A DNA stretch of 16,777 nucleotides from an uncultured bacterium (lineage in GTDB: Bacteria; Hydrogenedentota; Hydrogenedentia; Hydrogenedentales; JAEUWI01): NCBI GenBank assembly GCA_963977445.1, contig CAXBPH010000147.1:1-16777 (forward strand), given 5' to 3'. The first letter of the stretch is position 1; the number at the start of each line of letters is the position of its first letter. The notes under the pieces were generated by a model that ran no database searches, was not told where the DNA came from, and saw only the letters and a program-made list of their open reading frames with translations. Positions 1 to 12,332 of the stretch are shown here, piece by piece. The position numbers and the translations under genes are program-made.

Positions 1-202
1 GGTCATGTTTGCTTCAAGACGTGGTGCTGTCGGTGCAGTCCCCGGTCCCCCCGAGTGTGAATTGGCCCTCAGGGGGACGGCCCCGACGGTTGGATTCTTC
101 TCTCGTGGGGTTTGTTCGCATCTGGCACCAGGGAGTCAAGTTCGCTTCAAATCGTGGTGATGTCGGTGCAGTCCCCGGTCAGTCGACGGTTGGGTTTTCT
201 CT
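1..202 (+). repeat. Tandem array of repeat arm A: partial unit ending at 43, hairpin linker, full unit 73-176, start of another unit 184-202; continues beyond the window edge
   Basis: The unit GGGGACGGCCCCGAC...TGGCACCA...GCTTCAA...GTCGGTGCAGTCCCC matches copies at 1136-1239, 1268-1371 and ~1379-1471. Unit ends at 43 and 176 give a 133-nt period. Confidence 0.95.
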
Positions 203-832: not shown

Positions 833-976
833 GGTAGATTCAATCACCACGTGCAACGATGGCCGCTTGGAGGACCGAGTATGGTGTCCGGTCGTAAGGC
901 GGCATTCCGGGTCTATTGTTGAGCCTTTCTACGATGGCGTTCAAGGTGACGGCTTTGACGTTGGAGACAGCTGTTG
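833..976 (-). mobile_element. IS30-family remnant: terminal inverted repeat plus degenerate transposase C-terminus
   Basis: 833-858 GGTAGATTCAATCACCACGTGCAACG resembles the 26-bp IS30 end (recalled as TGTAGATTCAATTGGTCAACGCAACA). The minus strand reads 'VTLNAIVERLNNRP', then after a frameshift 'RTPYSVLQAAIVARGD*'. This matches the IS30 transposase tail 'LNNRPRK.L...TP.E', which runs into the IR. Confidence 0.8.
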
Positions 977-1485
977 GCTTCAAGACGTGGTGGTGTCGGG
1001 GCGTTCTCCGGGGACTGCACTGACCTGGAGTGCGTGGTGGTAGGGTGATGCCGTCTTGGTGCCGGGGAAGTCGTGGGTAAGCTGGGAGTCTTTTCAGGTC
1101 GGGGCCGTCCCCCCCGAGGGTGAATTGTCACTCAGGGGGACGGCCCCGACGGTTGGGGTTCTCTTTAGTGGGTTGCGATTGCATCTGGCACCACGGGGTC
1201 AAGTTTGCTTCAATACGTGGTGCTGTCGGTGCAGTCCCCGGTCCTCCCGAGGGTGATTGGCCCTCAGGGGGACGGCCCCGACGGTTGGGGTTTTCTTTCG
1301 ATGGTTGCGTTTGCCTCTGGCACCACGGGGTCGTGTTTGCTTCAATACGTGTTGGTGTCGGTGCAGTCCCCGGTCACCCGATGGTTGGGGTTTTCTTTCG
1401 TGGGGTTTGTTTGCCTCTGGCACCACGGGGTCCAGTTTGCTTCAAGACGTGGTGCTGTCGGTGCAGTCCCCGGTGTCCCCACGGT
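977..1485 (+). repeat. Composite array: degenerate A end (977-1009), arm B (1010-1112), linker, A (1136-1239), linker, A (1268-1371), 5'-truncated A (~1379-1471)
   Basis: Unit ends GTCGGTGCAGTCCCC at 1239, 1371 and 1471 give periods of 132 and 100. There is a perfect 16-bp IR at the B/A junction: GTCGGGGCCGTCCCCC (1098-1113) / GGGGGACGGCCCCGAC (1135-1150). Confidence 0.95.
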
Positions 1486-5879: not shown

Positions 5880-5982
5880 GGTGTGGCGCATAGAATGAAT
5901 GACGTCCAACTTAGATCGACGGGAGGCCGAAACTAAGACGGTTTGTATCACAAAGGAGGAAGACATATCTGGACGGACCAAC

Positions 5983-6165
5983 AGGGGGTTGACCATTCCT
6001 GGTCGACACAAGGCCCTCATCAGTTTTCACAGGGCCCGTGATGTTGTTCAGGTGATGGGATGCTTGGAGGTGGTTACCCTTGGTATTCACCGTGTTTTGT
6101 GTTCGCCGGAGTGAGCCGGGGGTAATTCCGTGCGCGTTGTGTCGACCAGGAATGGTCAACCCCCT
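5983..6165. repeat. REP doublet / REPIN- or MITE-like element with perfect 29-bp inverted repeats and a 125-nt spacer
   Basis: AGGGGGTTGACCATTCCTGGTCGACACAA (5983-6011) is the exact reverse complement of 6137-6165. Each arm contains the hairpin GTTGACCA-TTCC-TGGTCGAC. Confidence 0.93.
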
Positions 6166-6248
6166 ATATCTCCCGTTCCCAAGCTCCGCTTCGCCCACGA
6201 TAAGGTCATCATTGCGAAAAAGCACCGACAACAGGAAGGACATAGAAC

Positions 6249-7705: not shown

Positions 7706-7840
7706 ATGAACTATGACCAGGAAGAACAAGCGATACTGCAGGCGCTCGAAGACGACCGGTTGGCGCTCAGGAAGCCGGACGAAGCCGAGCTGGCCCTTTT
7801 TAAGGCTGCTGCCACCAGCACGTTAAAAACAGGGGGTTAG
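7706..7840 (+). pseudogene. Truncated cognate antitoxin (N-terminal ~41 aa; C-terminal RHH/CopG-like part missing)
   Basis: The ATG lies 1 nt after the toxin stop, with AAGGA upstream. 'MNYDQEEQAILQALEDDRLALRKPDEAELALFKAAATSTLK' resembles 'D.EE.EIL...E.......AA..TLKK' antitoxins. It then runs into the REP arm (TGG*) instead of the usual 'RINIRL...YQTLI' tail. Confidence 0.72.
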
Positions 7841-8006
7841 GCATTCCTGCCTGACAGAAAGTGCAACACAAACATTCAGGACAAACGCGATTCGGGCGAA
7901 GGGCACGACGTCTCGCCGACGATTAGGTGCGGGAGGTTGAATAGGTCCAAGTGCCCTTTGGCGTTTACGCGTGCTTTGTGTCAGGCAGGAATGCCTAACC
8001 CCCTGT
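7829..8006. repeat. Second REP doublet with perfect 28-bp inverted repeats and a 122-nt spacer
   Basis: ACAGGGGGTTAGGCATTCCTGCCTGACA (7829-7856) is the exact reverse complement of 7979-8006. Internal hairpin GTTAGGCA-TTCC-TGCCTGAC. The spacer also pairs: CGAAGGGCAC/GTGCCCTTTG and AAACGC/GCGTTT. Confidence 0.93.
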
Positions 8007-8023
8007 GCCGAATTTACCCTACA

Positions 8024-9130
8024 CTACTCCTGATAAAACCAATCCACCCCGACCCGCAATACATGCAACCCATCGCGCTTGTGGTAGCTGATGATAGCCA
8101 CGTCGTCGAGGAACATCAGGCTGGGGTAGCCGTAGTCGTCGTCGGGGTCGCCCTGGATAACTTTTTCGCTCACCCAGGTTTCGCCGTCGTCTTTGGAGAT
8201 GACGGAGACGAAGGGGGTGCGTCGGTGGGGTTCGGGGGCCGCCGTTACAACGCAAAACGAGGAGGTCGCCCGTGGAGGGGATACGGGCCACGTTGAGGGC
8301 GGAGGAGGTGTGGGTGGGGAGGGTCAGGGCATTGACCATCTCGCCTTTGGACCAGGTCTCGCCTCGGTCTTCGGAATAGGAGCGGGCGATGAAGTGGCTG
8401 TAGGTCCGCATGAGCATCAGGAGGCGACCGTCTTTCAATTCGACGATGTGGGGCTCCTGGGCCTCGATGGGCAACATGTTCACGCTGTTCTTGCTCTCCC
8501 ACCACGTGTATCCGTTGTCGTCGGAGTGCATCACGAAACTCACATAGCCCGAGTGGTCACCGCCCTCGCTCCGAGCCTGCCGTTCACCGGGTGCGACGAG
8601 CCGCCCGTCGGAGAGCTTGAGCAATTTGTTGTTGTGGATGATGTTGTAGCCGGCGTGGGGCGTGACGATAAGCTGGTCGCCCCAGGTCTCGGTTTCGTTG
8701 GCGCTGCGGCGTAGATAGTTGTGCCCGAAAAGGGCTCCATGCTGCTGCGGTAAATGTAGGTCACCAGGATCTGGTCGTTGGCCGTCCGGACGAAGCTGGG
8801 GTGGCAATAGACTTCCAGATCGTACTTGGGCGTGTTCGCCGGGATGAGGATGAACTCCTCTGCCCAAGTCTTTCCCTGGTCGGAAGAATAGCGGGCCGCG
8901 ATAGACCCGTCGGCATTGCCCGCCCCGTCCATACGCGTGTAGGCCAGGAGGAGGCGTCCGTCTTTCAGGGCAATGATGTCGCCCGGCATGTTCCGGTAGC
9001 CATAGGTCTTCACGGGCAGTTTCACCACGTGGGTATCTTCGAAAAGCGGGGCTTCGGCGGCGGCCGTGCCTGTTATTGCATGGGTGGCGGCCAACAGAAT
9101 TGCCATCATCAGAATAGTGGTGTATTTCAA
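8024..9130 (-). pseudogene. Secreted BNR-repeat (Asp-box) sialidase-family protein, ~368 aa if repaired; two frameshifts (true pseudogene or sequencing error)
   Basis: Signal peptide; Asp boxes SSDQGKTW, SDDNGYTW, SEDRGETW and SKDDGETW; 'QEP', 'RTP' and 'YGYPS' motifs. These are spread over ORF 8540..9130, ORF 8019..8867 and a third segment 'EPHRRTPFVSVISKDDGETW...YGYPSLMF...DWFYQE*' ending at 8024. Shifts occur at ~8728-8734 (1 nt missing) and 8234-8238 (1 nt extra). Confidence 0.85.
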
Positions 9131-10394: not shown

Positions 10395-11915
10395 ATGGTA
10401 CTTCGCCTGTTCATGCCGTTGATGTTGACTCTGGCCGCGCCTGCCGTTGCCGAAAATGTGTTTGCCGGTGCTTTGGACGGGTTGACCCACAAGCAGCATT
10501 TTACCTCCATGCGGGCGAGCAGTTCGGCGGAGGAACTGGACAGCAATGGCGATTCGCGGAGCATCATGCCGGGGGACACACTGGTGCTCCTTGATGCGGA
10601 TGGTCCGGGAATCATCACCCATTTTTGGAACACCATTGCGGCTTTCGACCCCTTCGCAGGCCGTTCGGTTGTGCTCCGCGTTTACTACGACGGCAACACG
10701 GAGCCGAGCGTGCAGGCACCCCTGGGCGATTTCTTTGGGGTGGGCCACGGGGCCAACAAAACCTTCACCTCCATGCCCGTGGCCGTATCCGCCAAGGGGT
10801 TGGCGCGCACTTGTTACTGGCGCATGCCCTTTCACAAGCACGTGAAGGTGACGGTGACCAACGAGTCGTCCGTCTACCCCGTGGTGGATTTCTATTTCTA
10901 CCTCGACTGGCAAAAACACGAGAGCCTGCCGGAAGACACCCAGTACTTCCACGCCACCTATCACCAAGCCATGCCCGCGACACCGGGTAACTACACCATC
11001 CTCGAAACGGAAGGGGAAGGACTCTATGTCGGCACCGTTTACTCGGCCCAGCAGGTGGAGTTGGGTTGGTTCGGCGAAGGCGATGACTTCTTTTACATTG
11101 ATGGTGCGGAAGCGCCCCAACTCAAAGGCACGGGTACGGAGGATTATTTCAACGACGCCTGGGGCTTTCGGGAATTCTCTACGCCCTTCCACGGGGTGTC
11201 ACTCTACGAGGGCGAGTTTCCCGGCGACCGCGTCACGGCCTACCGCTGGCACATCATGGACCCCATCGCCTTCAAGAAGTCCCTCCGGGTCACCATCGAG
11301 CATAGGGGTAGTGTAATGGACGAAACCAGGCCCGTCGACGAGGCCAGCTTGAGTGGCTCGGGTGAACGGCCTGATTGGGTCAGCTCCGTGGGTTTCTGGT
11401 ACCAGTACCCGCCCGTGACCATTTCCGAGCCCCTGCCCCCCGCCGAAAAACGGCTCGCACCCTATCGCGTACTGCCGGTTGGCAAGCTGCTCCAACGAAC
11501 CGACGAGGCATCCCGGCTCTTGCCATCCCACGTAGGCGTCCAACACCTGAGCAGTAACGCGGAGGGATTCCTGGAGATCGACTTCGAGGTCAGCGAGCCG
11601 GGGCGCTACCAGATTACCGGCCTTTTCAACGATAACCTGGCCAGCGCCATTTACCAGCCCATGCTCGATGACCAACCCATCGGCCAGCCCGTCAACATGG
11701 CCGCAGCCGACCCGGGCTTCACCTGGCACGGCTTTGACCTCCACGATCTCGATGCAGGCACCCATACCCTCCGCTTTGAGAAGGTGGCCGCCCAATCGGC
11801 CAGCCAGCGATCCATCGATTTCACCGAAGACGTATTGACCATCGAATACCTCGTACTCCTTCGGCTGGAAGACATGGAAGGCTACCACGTGGAATTTGAT
11901 CGGCGGAAGAAGTAG
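10395..11915 (+). CDS. Secreted DUF2961 / glycoside hydrolase family 172-like protein with an extra C-terminal beta domain
   Basis: AAGGAG lies 9 nt before ATG 10395 (alternative start 10371). Signal peptide ends 'APAVA'. Motifs: 'GPGIITHFW', 'PSVQAPLGDFFG', 'CYWRMPF', 'WFGEGDDFFYIDG', 'GTGTEDYF', 'YRWHIMDPIAF'. Confidence 0.9.
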   Translation: MVLRLFMPLMLTLAAPAVAENVFAGALDGLTHKQHFTSMRASSSAEELDSNGDSRSIMPGDTLVLLDADGPGIITHFWNTIAAFDPFAGRSVVLRVYYDGNTEPSVQAPLGDFFGVGHGANKTFTSMPVAVSAKGLARTCYWRMPFHKHVKVTVTNESSVYPVVDFYFYLDWQKHESLPEDTQYFHATYHQAMPATPGNYTILETEGEGLYVGTVYSAQQVELGWFGEGDDFFYIDGAEAPQLKGTGTEDYFNDAWGFREFSTPFHGVSLYEGEFPGDRVTAYRWHIMDPIAFKKSLRVTIEHRGSVMDETRPVDEASLSGSGERPDWVSSVGFWYQYPPVTISEPLPPAEKRLAPYRVLPVGKLLQRTDEASRLLPSHVGVQHLSSNAEGFLEIDFEVSEPGRYQITGLFNDNLASAIYQPMLDDQPIGQPVNMAAADPGFTWHGFDLHDLDAGTHTLRFEKVAAQSASQRSIDFTEDVLTIEYLVLLRLEDMEGYHVEFDRRKK

Positions 11916-11982
11916 ACGGGGTGGCGGTAGGATATTGGAAGGCAGCTTGGCCTTCTTGAATGATACGCGCGAATACGACATG

Positions 11983-12108
11983 GCCAATCTCCATTTACTT
12001 TTCTGGCTCTCGCTCATTCCCTTTGTCACCGGGTGGATGGGCGAGAGCCATTTTGGCACCTGGCCCGTGGTTGCCTACGGCGTGGTCTTGCTCATGGCCT
12101 CCGTAGCG
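11983..12108 (+). pseudogene. Internal fragment (~42 codons) of a TMEM175/DUF1211-family membrane protein
   Basis: 'ANLHLLFWLSLIPFVTGWMGESHFGTWPVVAYGVVLLMASVA' matches the conserved core of DUF1211 proteins. The N-terminal 'RLEAFSDGV.AI' region is absent and the 3' side is replaced by repeat arm A. Confidence 0.78.
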
Positions 12109-12288
12109 TGCGTTTGCATTTGGCACCAGGTCGACAAGTTTGCTTCAAGACGTAATGTTGTCGGTGCAGTCCCCGGGGACTGCACTGACCTCGAATGTGT
12201 GGTGGTAGGGTGATGCTGTCTTGGTGCCGGGGAGGTCGTGGGTATTTTGGGTGTCTTTTCCGGTCGGGGCCGTCCCCCCAGGGTCATT
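12109..12288 (+). repeat. Repeat element: 3' part of arm A (12109-12174) joined to full arm B (12175-12277) plus part of the linker
   Basis: Arm B closely matches 1010-1112 (both 103 nt). The junction is a loopless 30-nt palindrome, GTCGGTGCAGTCCCC|GGGGACTGCACTGAC (14 Watson-Crick pairs and 1 G.T). Confidence 0.95.
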
Positions 12289-12332
12289 CGCACTCGCACG
12301 CGCGCTCAGCAAGCGTTGCTGGCACCTGTGTC

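Follow-up and report, generated by a model that had tools for sequence, protein, structure and literature searches.

Two long arms of opposite orientation, both rich in G and T on the same strand, raise the question of whether they form a single element that folds as a whole or are two copies of a smaller repeat. The arms lie at positions 1010-1239 of a stretch of 16,777 nucleotides (hereafter, the window) from an uncultured bacterium of the Hydrogenedentota (GenBank assembly GCA_963977445.1, contig CAXBPH010000147.1). An earlier note, made from the letters alone, had described them as reverse complements of each other that are recoded by A>G and C>T changes, such that the + strand would fold into a rod with many G.T pairs. 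Comparison of all copies in the genome gives a different answer: the region consists of two head-to-head copies of one small, polar, non-coding repeat, situated within a short array. The family to which this repeat belongs is probably a mobile element of the REPIN or terminal inverted repeat (TIR) type, copied by a dedicated Y1 transposase.

The repeat unit and its pairing

Iterated nhmmer models of arm A and of arm B were run on the genome of the window (G000; 7.1 Mb in 464 contigs, 56.4% G+C), and the two models converged on each other's reverse strand; thus, A and B are one family. Assignment to A or B by nhmmer score is unreliable after convergence, and polarity was called from the unit ends instead. 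This yielded 136 full units; nhmmer gave 158 loci. In an alignment of 139 near-full copies brought into one orientation, the order within the unit is a leader hairpin, a left end L (GGGGACGGCCCCGAC, 15 nt), a variable spacer and a right end R (GTCGGTGCAGTCCCC, 15 nt). The leader, ~21 nt of the form CTGAGKG-N7-CMCTCAG, precedes L even in single copies, and its last seven positions are conserved at 0.56-0.90. The spacer measures 72-76 nt in 133 of the 136 full units, and the same alignment shows a GGCACCA(A/C)G-like motif in its variable middle. Among 222 distinct units out of three genomes, the sample used for the central motif as well as for covariation and skew, a weak CCA[AC]G motif is found at spacer offset 36-40 in 116 units and its reverse complement at offsets 30-48 in 26, and the remaining spacer positions carry less than 0.7 bit each.

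In the window, arm A (1136-1239) reads GGGGACGGCCCCGAC ... TGGCACCA ... GTCGGTGCAGTCCCC, and arm B (1010-1112) reads GGGGACTGCACTGAC ... TGGTGCC ... GTCGGGGCCGTCCCC. The 15-nt ends and the central TGGCACCA / TGGTGCC are therefore located as originally described, and both subtypes are indeed present again ~11 kb away (Table 1). A and B are, however, not two arm types of one recoded element but one polar unit of ~103 nt in two orientations, here placed head to head.

The pairing that evolution has kept is internal to the unit. L pairs with R of its own unit at 13 of 15 positions, and across the 222 units several of these positions change in a compensatory manner: L14/R2 is A-T in 175 units and G-C in 32, L11/R5 is C-G in 201 and T-A in 8, L13/R3 is G-C in 209 and C-G in 4, and L15/R1 is C-G in 198, T.G in 7, A-T in 5 and G-C in 3. 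The mismatches are fixed as well, L7/R9 being G.A in 170 units and A.A in 40 (paired in 3/222) and L10/R6 being C.T in 213 (paired in 1/222), and these two always-mismatched stem positions give the hairpin its polarity. The two arms differ at L14/R2 in 19 of 52 adjacent inverted pairs; in these 19, the within-unit pair is intact in 37 of 38 cases and the arm-to-arm pair that a rod would use in 20 of 38. Thus, the conserved structure is each unit's own L-R stem and not the proposed 230-nt rod.

The differences between the arms, taken by the earlier note to be largely A>G or C>T, were recounted after the B (1010) and A (1136) spacers had been aligned in unit orientation. This alignment contains 29 identities, 20 transitions to G/T, 2 opposite transitions, 3 gaps and 21 transversions (12+1+8), the latter amounting to 21 of the 43 differences. 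When B was shuffled with its composition kept and realigned to A, the means were 28.7 identities, 14.6 such transitions and 14.4 A/C-to-G/T transversions. Since the observed identity equals that of the shuffled control, the spacers are barely alignable, and the excess of A>G and C>T changes (20 vs. 14.6) is modest; a small transition excess is what stands of the claim. Clustering of the spacers at 70% identity places the A type in a subfamily of 24 units on 16 contigs (mean G+T 0.61) and the B type in one of 23 units on 17 contigs (mean G+T 0.33), both in standard orientation, and several further subfamilies are compositionally neutral. The A and B subfamilies are linked by same-orientation intermediates, such as C46:18238, on account of which a relationship through local motif inversion (CGTGGG vs. 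CCCACG) was dropped.

The + strand of 1010-1239 is indeed predicted to fold better than the - strand, with RNA parameters (-134.7 vs. -93.5 kcal/mol) as well as with DNA parameters (-57.6, z -6.78 vs. -46.0, z -5.03), so that the part of the one-strand folding claim that concerns energy is borne out. With ends and linker fixed and both spacers shuffled, however, the + strand retains -124.4 of -134.7 kcal/mol; the spacers contribute only ~10 kcal/mol on the + strand (z -2.44, with 4 of 150 shuffled versions as good) and none on the - strand (z -0.15), the corresponding values with DNA parameters being z -1.87 and -0.71. The same control on the 136 single units, with L and R fixed, showed no better fold of the real spacers (mean z -0.05 on the standard strand and -0.19 on the reverse strand), and the G+T-rich strand was always the more stable one. 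Since G.U/G.T pairs are open to a G+T-rich strand but not to its A+C-rich complement, the energy asymmetry is mainly compositional: most of the stability and of the strand asymmetry stem from the conserved ends and from composition. A search of Rfam gave 0 matches at gathering score (best weak match, 20 bits vs. 32). Weak Guanidine-II matches at the linker occurred on both strands and were dismissed as chance.

Range, gene context and a candidate enzyme

The exact L...R pattern has 60 matches in G000, 25 in G003 and 15 in G007 (reversed-pattern control, 0) and is absent from the other 38 of the 41 related genomes searched; G003 and G007 belong to the same Hydrogenedentota genus as G000, and G005 is another relative. 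Units are present in 3 of 9 genomes of the genus, and in a one-genome-per-species collection, exact ends were found only in two Hydrogenedentota metagenome-assembled genomes (34 loci). Across the three genomes, 5 of 113 clusters lie inside a called gene, the repeat thus being mostly extragenic. For the own-genome clusters with both neighbours called (n = 40), 17 are flanked by convergent, 6 by divergent and 17 by co-directional genes, compared with expected fractions of 0.136, 0.141 and 0.723, respectively (chi-square p = 4 × 10−7). Genes were called with a dicodon log-odds caller, which is imperfect (the BNR gene region 8019-8867 was missed or mis-stranded), so that the gene-context counts are noisy.

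Between species, the arrays turn over. That of the window (973-1471) is bordered on one side by the start of an ICMT-family methyltransferase gene (210-821, - strand) and on the other by a large + strand gene. The orthologue of the ICMT gene in G003 (83% identical protein) also has flanking units; the gene alone aligns, the spacers are unalignable, and on the strand on which the window spacer is G+T-rich, that of G003 is A+C-rich. At the same locus in 6 more distant congeners, no L- or R-like match was found within ~1.5 kb in 4, and the other 2 have isolated 3-mismatch matches only and no unit. The G003 orthologue (G003:C63:147-734, locus L056) has, per the genome search, one in-frame TAG.

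A search of the genus with the protein of a Y1 gene on contig C184 of the own genome led to a 208-aa gene in the sister genome G003 (contig C58, 1483-2109, - strand; locus L009) that is bracketed by inverted units, a forward one at 1365-1466, 17 nt from the stop codon, and a reverse one at 2158-2261, 49 nt before the start codon. Further units occupy 1121-1222 and 1242-1345, another begins at the contig end, and the four units at this locus are all G+T-rich on the sense strand of the gene. The protein matches Pfam Y1_Tnp with 47.8 bits (cut-off 23), and its translation contains HVH and YVEVNPVRAG stretches, which we take to be the HUH and tyrosine motifs. It is on the strength of this gene, found with inverted units in a relative and with no counterpart found in the fragmented own assembly, that the repeats are filed as a REPIN/TIR-repeat family. 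The gene also supports the earlier placement of the repeat, as non-coding and non-autonomous, among elements of the single-stranded DNA world (HUH; REP-associated tyrosine transposase, RAYT) with the enzyme encoded elsewhere.

By analogy with the REP/REPIN-RAYT and TIR-TIRYT systems, the units would be processed as single strands and the enzyme would have them as its substrate. The L-R stem would form on single-stranded DNA, chiefly on the lagging-strand template, and a Y1 (HUH) tyrosine transposase dedicated to the units, with its gene at a single fixed locus, would recognise the stem, and cut and rejoin the unit. Units could thereby spread into intergenic DNA, mostly downstream of genes, and end up single or as head-to-head, tail-to-tail and tandem arrays.

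Several observations weigh against this assignment. The gene-flanked arrangement was found at one locus in one genome. No cognate transposase was found in the own genome, where none of the 16 Pfam Y1_Tnp matches has L or R within 2.5 kb (<=2 mismatches), with the exception of C184, and there the flanks of the Y1 gene (C184:13476-14129) hold a related but different repeat (R-like GCCGGTACAGTCCCC). The C184 protein, the best own-genome homologue of the G003 enzyme, is 59% identical to it; the nearest homologue elsewhere is in G005 (69% identical), and none was found in G007, though G007 has units. With 76.3 bits, the G003 protein is just below the cut-off of 80 of the NCBIfam model NF047646, REP-associated tyrosine transposase, the whole profile being covered. 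L, R and the flank consensus all lack a terminal GTAG tag, and CGTC is confined to the stem, where it lies on the complement of L; this agrees with the untagged TIR type and not with GTAG REPs. The spacer has no fold beyond composition, unlike described REPINs, and its skew is not accounted for by the REPIN/TIR-repeat model. No excision or insertion event was seen, the sole public run with part of the stretch being from a relative, with short contigs; this DNA run contains a tenth of the sampled words, and its one joint (88 to 1438), between repeat copies and with a 23-nt side, is uninformative on excision, expression or habitat. Among public runs, no RNA data set with the sequence is listed. 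The assemblies of the own genome and of G007 are both fragmented; contigs break off at these repeats, and the own cognate gene may for that reason be missing from the assembly.

The C184 locus is of interest in its own right. It comprises, at C184:12900-14254 (locus L001), the 218-aa Y1 transposase gene and a flanking module of ~258 nt in which the R-like sequence is combined with a GGGACAGCCT..AGGCTGTCCC hairpin, and it looks like a sister repeat/enzyme pair.

Table 1 Repeat units and related features in the window.
Position	Strand	Feature	Remark
1..43	+	unit truncated at the contig start, 3' part	right end R at 29-43
51..71	+	leader mini-hairpin of the following unit	CCGAGTG-N7-CCCTCA
73..176	+	A-type full unit in standard orientation	spacer G+T 0.65
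973..1009	+	A-type 3' remnant with degenerate right end, tail to tail with the next unit	87% identity, 973-1114 vs. 12138-12279
1010..1112	-	full unit, reverse orientation (arm B, 103 nt)	spacer G+T 0.73 on + strand
1113..1135	.	head-to-head linker, 23 nt	from the overlapping leaders of both units
1136..1239	+	full unit, standard orientation (arm A, 104 nt)	spacer G+T 0.68
1246..1267	+	leader mini-hairpin of the following unit	
1268..1371	+	full unit, standard orientation	spacer G+T 0.73
1377..1471	+	unit without left end	right end R at 1457-1471
12097..12174	+	3' part of a truncated A-type unit, tail to tail with the next unit	
12175..12277	-	full unit, reverse orientation, B type	spacer G+T 0.78 on + strand
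12278..12295	-	leader of the unit 12175-12277	

Some further features adjoin these repeats. The truncated unit at 12097-12174 starts inside an open frame (11896-12213) that has no Pfam match and a low coding score (10.7), and whose upstream part resembles the C-terminus of a membrane protein; the repeat may have taken the place of a gene end. Elsewhere in the own genome, a short tandem repeat of CCAAATT units (G000:C385:2401-2450) lies directly beside a single B-type unit, and a contig start directly before a repeat unit (G000:C56:1-17) reads ..GCTCTTCCGATCT, which resembles the tail of an Illumina adapter and is probably untrimmed adapter sequence. The window also contains a second, unrelated repeat family, at 5976-6170 and 7825-8010, on either side of a GFO/IDH/MocA oxidoreductase gene. 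Its inverted arms of 32-33 nt (ACAGGGGGTT..CATTCCTG..) are 112-119 nt apart, it is found on 30 contigs by BLAST, and copies flank a Y1_Tnp match on C435 (2329-2508), so that this is probably another family of the REP/RAYT type. An open reading frame with BNR repeats (sialidase-like; 8019-8867, - strand) lies in a region (8019-9130) where the coding score is low and overlapping frames compete, and it may be degraded or frameshifted.

Spacer composition and competing explanations

The + strand is G+T-rich in every full copy in the window, as had been noted (5 full units, spacer G+T 0.65-0.78). Across the family, spacer G+T ranges from 0.21 to 0.79, with a standard deviation of 0.135, compared with 0.074 for intergenic 74-nt windows and 0.058 for the binomial expectation; the intergenic control consisted of 3122 ordinary windows (1561 pairs). 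Deviations of at least 0.15 from a G+T of 0.5 occur in 30.6% of the 222 spacers and 4.0% of the intergenic windows, and deviations of at least 0.20 in 15.3% and 1.3%, respectively. Where both arms of an inverted pair are skewed, 21 pairs share the G+T-rich strand and 3 are discordant (e.g. C6:74-410); after related pairs were collapsed, 14 of 16 are concordant (p = 0.004), and all 14 skewed direct pairs are concordant. The G+T skew is real, element-specific and concordant between inverted neighbours, and this central part of the earlier observation extends beyond the window. The skew shows no relation to the direction of transcription, for which the earlier note had suggested a check: clusters between co-directional genes (n = 26) have a G+T of 0.539 on the sense strand (p = 0.15), and 10 of 17 strongly skewed co-directional clusters are G+T-rich on the sense strand.

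A partial relation to replication-type strand bias is detectable. Third-position G+T of + and - genes of the same contig is correlated (r = 0.75; 147 contigs of 15 kb or more). Four-fold-site skew was corrected by averaging + and - genes, the raw values being confounded by gene-strand codon preference (GC -0.19, TA +0.14). Unit skew correlates with this orientation-corrected skew within 20 kb (r = 0.35, n = 113), and the signs agree for 38 of 50 strongly skewed units. Similar values were obtained with repeat-masked coding flanks (r = 0.33-0.35; 0.40-0.42 with one unit per contig, n = 61), and within the A and B subfamilies, the correlation with regional skew is 0.49 and 0.59. For the immediate 100-nt flanks r is 0.43 and for 400 nt it drops to 0.22, compared with 0.23 between ordinary intergenic windows that are neighbours. 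An unmasked test with 2-kb flanks (r = 0.61) was inflated by neighbouring repeat copies and has been replaced by the masked tests. Contig third-position G+T varies from ~0.41 to 0.61 in G000, a marked asymmetry that could serve to orient contigs relative to the replication fork.

The size of the skew is another matter. The standard deviation of GC / TA skew is 0.28 / 0.34 for units vs. 0.12 / 0.07 for the regions, and the orientation of the subfamilies relative to regional skew is random (A, 12/24; B, 9/23). Singleton substitutions among close paralogues show no net flux to G/T on the G+T-rich strand of the family (35 towards, 63 away; per-site rates of 0.163 and 0.149). When singletons are oriented to the strand that is G+T-rich in the region, C>T (19/596) exceeds T>C (9/784) and A>G equals G>A, the overall comparison of 36/1021 vs. 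40/1607 being not significant (p = 0.15). Local leading-strand bias, which the earlier note had named as a possible source of the skew, explains its sign in part but not its magnitude.

These data bear on what the pair in the window is. That arm B, linker and arm A are a single element of ~230 nt, forming on the + strand a G.T(U) rod that serves as a structured RNA or as a single-stranded DNA substrate, with the recoding as a footprint of selection for folding on one strand, is most improbable. Such a rod agrees with the better predicted folding of the + strand under both parameter sets, with the energy gained by the real spacers on that strand alone, and with the common G+T-rich strand of inverted neighbours (21 of 24 skewed pairs, 14 of 16 independent families). 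Compensatory changes, however, preserve the stems within units over arm-to-arm pairs, the spacers resemble each other no more than shuffled ones and differ by many transversions, single units and tandem same-orientation arrays are common and carry the same skew, and the three discordant pairs do not conform. A structured non-coding RNA is further disfavoured by the lack of an Rfam match and of spacer structure, by a skewed strand that is unrelated to gene direction, and by the many arrays between convergent genes. It is also very unlikely that the units are immobile sites retained by the host for protein binding or protection of RNA ends, like the gyrase- or IHF-bound bacterial interspersed mosaic elements (BIMEs) of E. 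coli, or miniature inverted-repeat transposable elements (MITEs) of a DDE transposase with TIRs of 15 nt. Enrichment downstream of genes, ends and spacer length that are highly conserved next to a free spacer sequence, and an own assembly in which no cognate transposase was found are all compatible with such elements; the Y1 gene flanked by units in G003, the genus-restricted range and the different arrays at the same locus between species argue against them. In the case of MITEs, no target-site duplication is apparent in the flank consensus (left ..CCCTCAG, right GG..), with no systematic search made for duplications or a parent insertion sequence.

It is possible, if doubtful, that the units are of the REP type and that their skew merely arises passively, from replication-strand bias in mutation (C>T and A>G on the lagging-strand template), maybe amplified in a spacer loop that is exposed when the L-R stem forms. 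The replication-type skew of the genome, the way in which unit skew tracks that of the region, and the excess of singleton C>T over T>C would all be expected on these grounds, but extremes are 8-12 times as frequent in units as in ordinary intergenic DNA, the two main subfamilies retain their opposite skews irrespective of location and are randomly oriented to regional skew, recent singletons lack a net flux to G/T, the regional test taken as a whole lacks significance, and there is no excess of A>G over G>A. An origin of the skew in the single-stranded state, the 73-nt spacer being a naked loop once the L-R stem has formed on one template strand, and this loop being either hypermutated by deamination or selected for an A+C-rich strand that, unable to pair with itself, remains unstructured for the transposase, is unlikely. 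If it held, the repeats would naturally keep a record of the exposed strand and of the frequency of its exposure, and elements whose skew reports single-strand exposure could read replication and repair asymmetries in uncultured genomes. We read the skew as a compositional trait of fast-evolving spacers, partly inherited with the subfamilies and partly due to replication-strand mutation bias, which leaves its size unexplained, and not as a sign of wobble pairing in a rod.

With the units as a family of the REPIN/TIR-repeat type, a well-defined family with a candidate enzyme is added to the Hydrogenedentota, an uncultured phylum. A candidate structured RNA or single-stranded DNA rod is at the same time removed, inverted polar repeats with skewed spacers being able to mimic a wobble-paired hairpin. 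The remaining puzzle is the spacers themselves, fixed in length and free in sequence, with an extreme content of G+T or A+C, and the skewed strand that inverted neighbours share. A full-text literature search for the end motifs returned an unrelated virology paper only, and no description of the family in Hydrogenedentota was among the matches listed by a search for the phylum together with REPIN, RAYT or 'repetitive extragenic'. A match to a REP/BIME/MITE-type family, which the earlier note had named as refuting its reading, is obtained in kind, though no published record of the family itself was found.

Relation to known systems

Integron attC sites have conserved paired ends, fixed unpaired bases that mark the strand and a variable middle of limited extent, and they are active as folded single strands. 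The present units resemble them in having paired ends with fixed mismatches and a variable middle of limited length. They differ from attC sites in that there are no cassette open reading frames between units, units occur in both orientations, and the associated enzyme is a Y1 HUH transposase and not a tyrosine recombinase (no search aimed at an integrase was made).

The REP/BIME arrays of E. coli and its REPtron are reportedly treated in Ton-Hoang 2012. Like these arrays, as far as the available accounts describe them, the present ones contain alternately oriented units with short conserved linkers, and as in the E. coli REPtron, there would be one transposase gene per repeat type, flanked by repeats as at the G003 locus and encoding an enzyme of a class that works on single-stranded DNA. 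E. coli REPs are stem-loops of 20-40 nt in these accounts, whereas the present unit measures ~103 nt with an unpaired middle of 73 nt. The REPtron is defined in the available portions of PMC6006769 (Quentin et al. 2018), which also place the action of Y1 enzymes on single-stranded DNA, at the lagging-strand template.

The available portions of PMC3733652 (Di Nocera et al. 2013) describe TIRtrons, in which inverted repeats without relation to GTAG REPs flank RAYT-like genes (TIRYT); GGGGWSAS is common to some TIRs, and moderately abundant families occur as dimers and clusters. The L variant GGGGACAG (40 of 222 units) fits GGGGWSAS, and the main form GGGGACGG is off by one position. Unlike the TIRs so described, each flanking element here is a whole unit of ~103 nt, with both ends and the spacer, and not a single TIR. 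The habit of lying downstream of genes, described for REPs in the same portions of PMC3733652, is shared by the present units.

REPINs of Pseudomonas fluorescens SBW25, as presented in the available portions of PMC3116915 (Bertels & Rainey 2011), consist of two invariant inverted 16-mers and a less conserved spacer of which length and hairpin capacity matter; compensatory changes, an adjoining RAYT and excision seen in reads are reported, and in GI REPINs the starts of the two 16-mers are separated by 71 bp. The present units differ from REPINs in that L and R are not themselves REP palindromes, in their two fixed stem mismatches, leader hairpin, central motif and unstructured spacer, and in a cognate gene that was found only in the sister genome. 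Their spacers are strongly G+T- or A+C-skewed; a spacer skew is not described for REPIN-type elements in the available portions of PMC3116915, PMC3733652 and PMC6006769, and the word 'skew' is absent from the last of these papers. With REPINs as presented there, they share nearly invariant inverted ends of ~16 nt, a spacer of kept length (here 72-76 nt), compensatory changes that keep the stem, hundreds of extragenic copies that are single or clustered, and, at the one locus in G003, a Y1 transposase gene flanked by copies. The earlier suggestion of a new kind of element is not upheld, and with these differences the units fit the REPIN/TIR-repeat kind.

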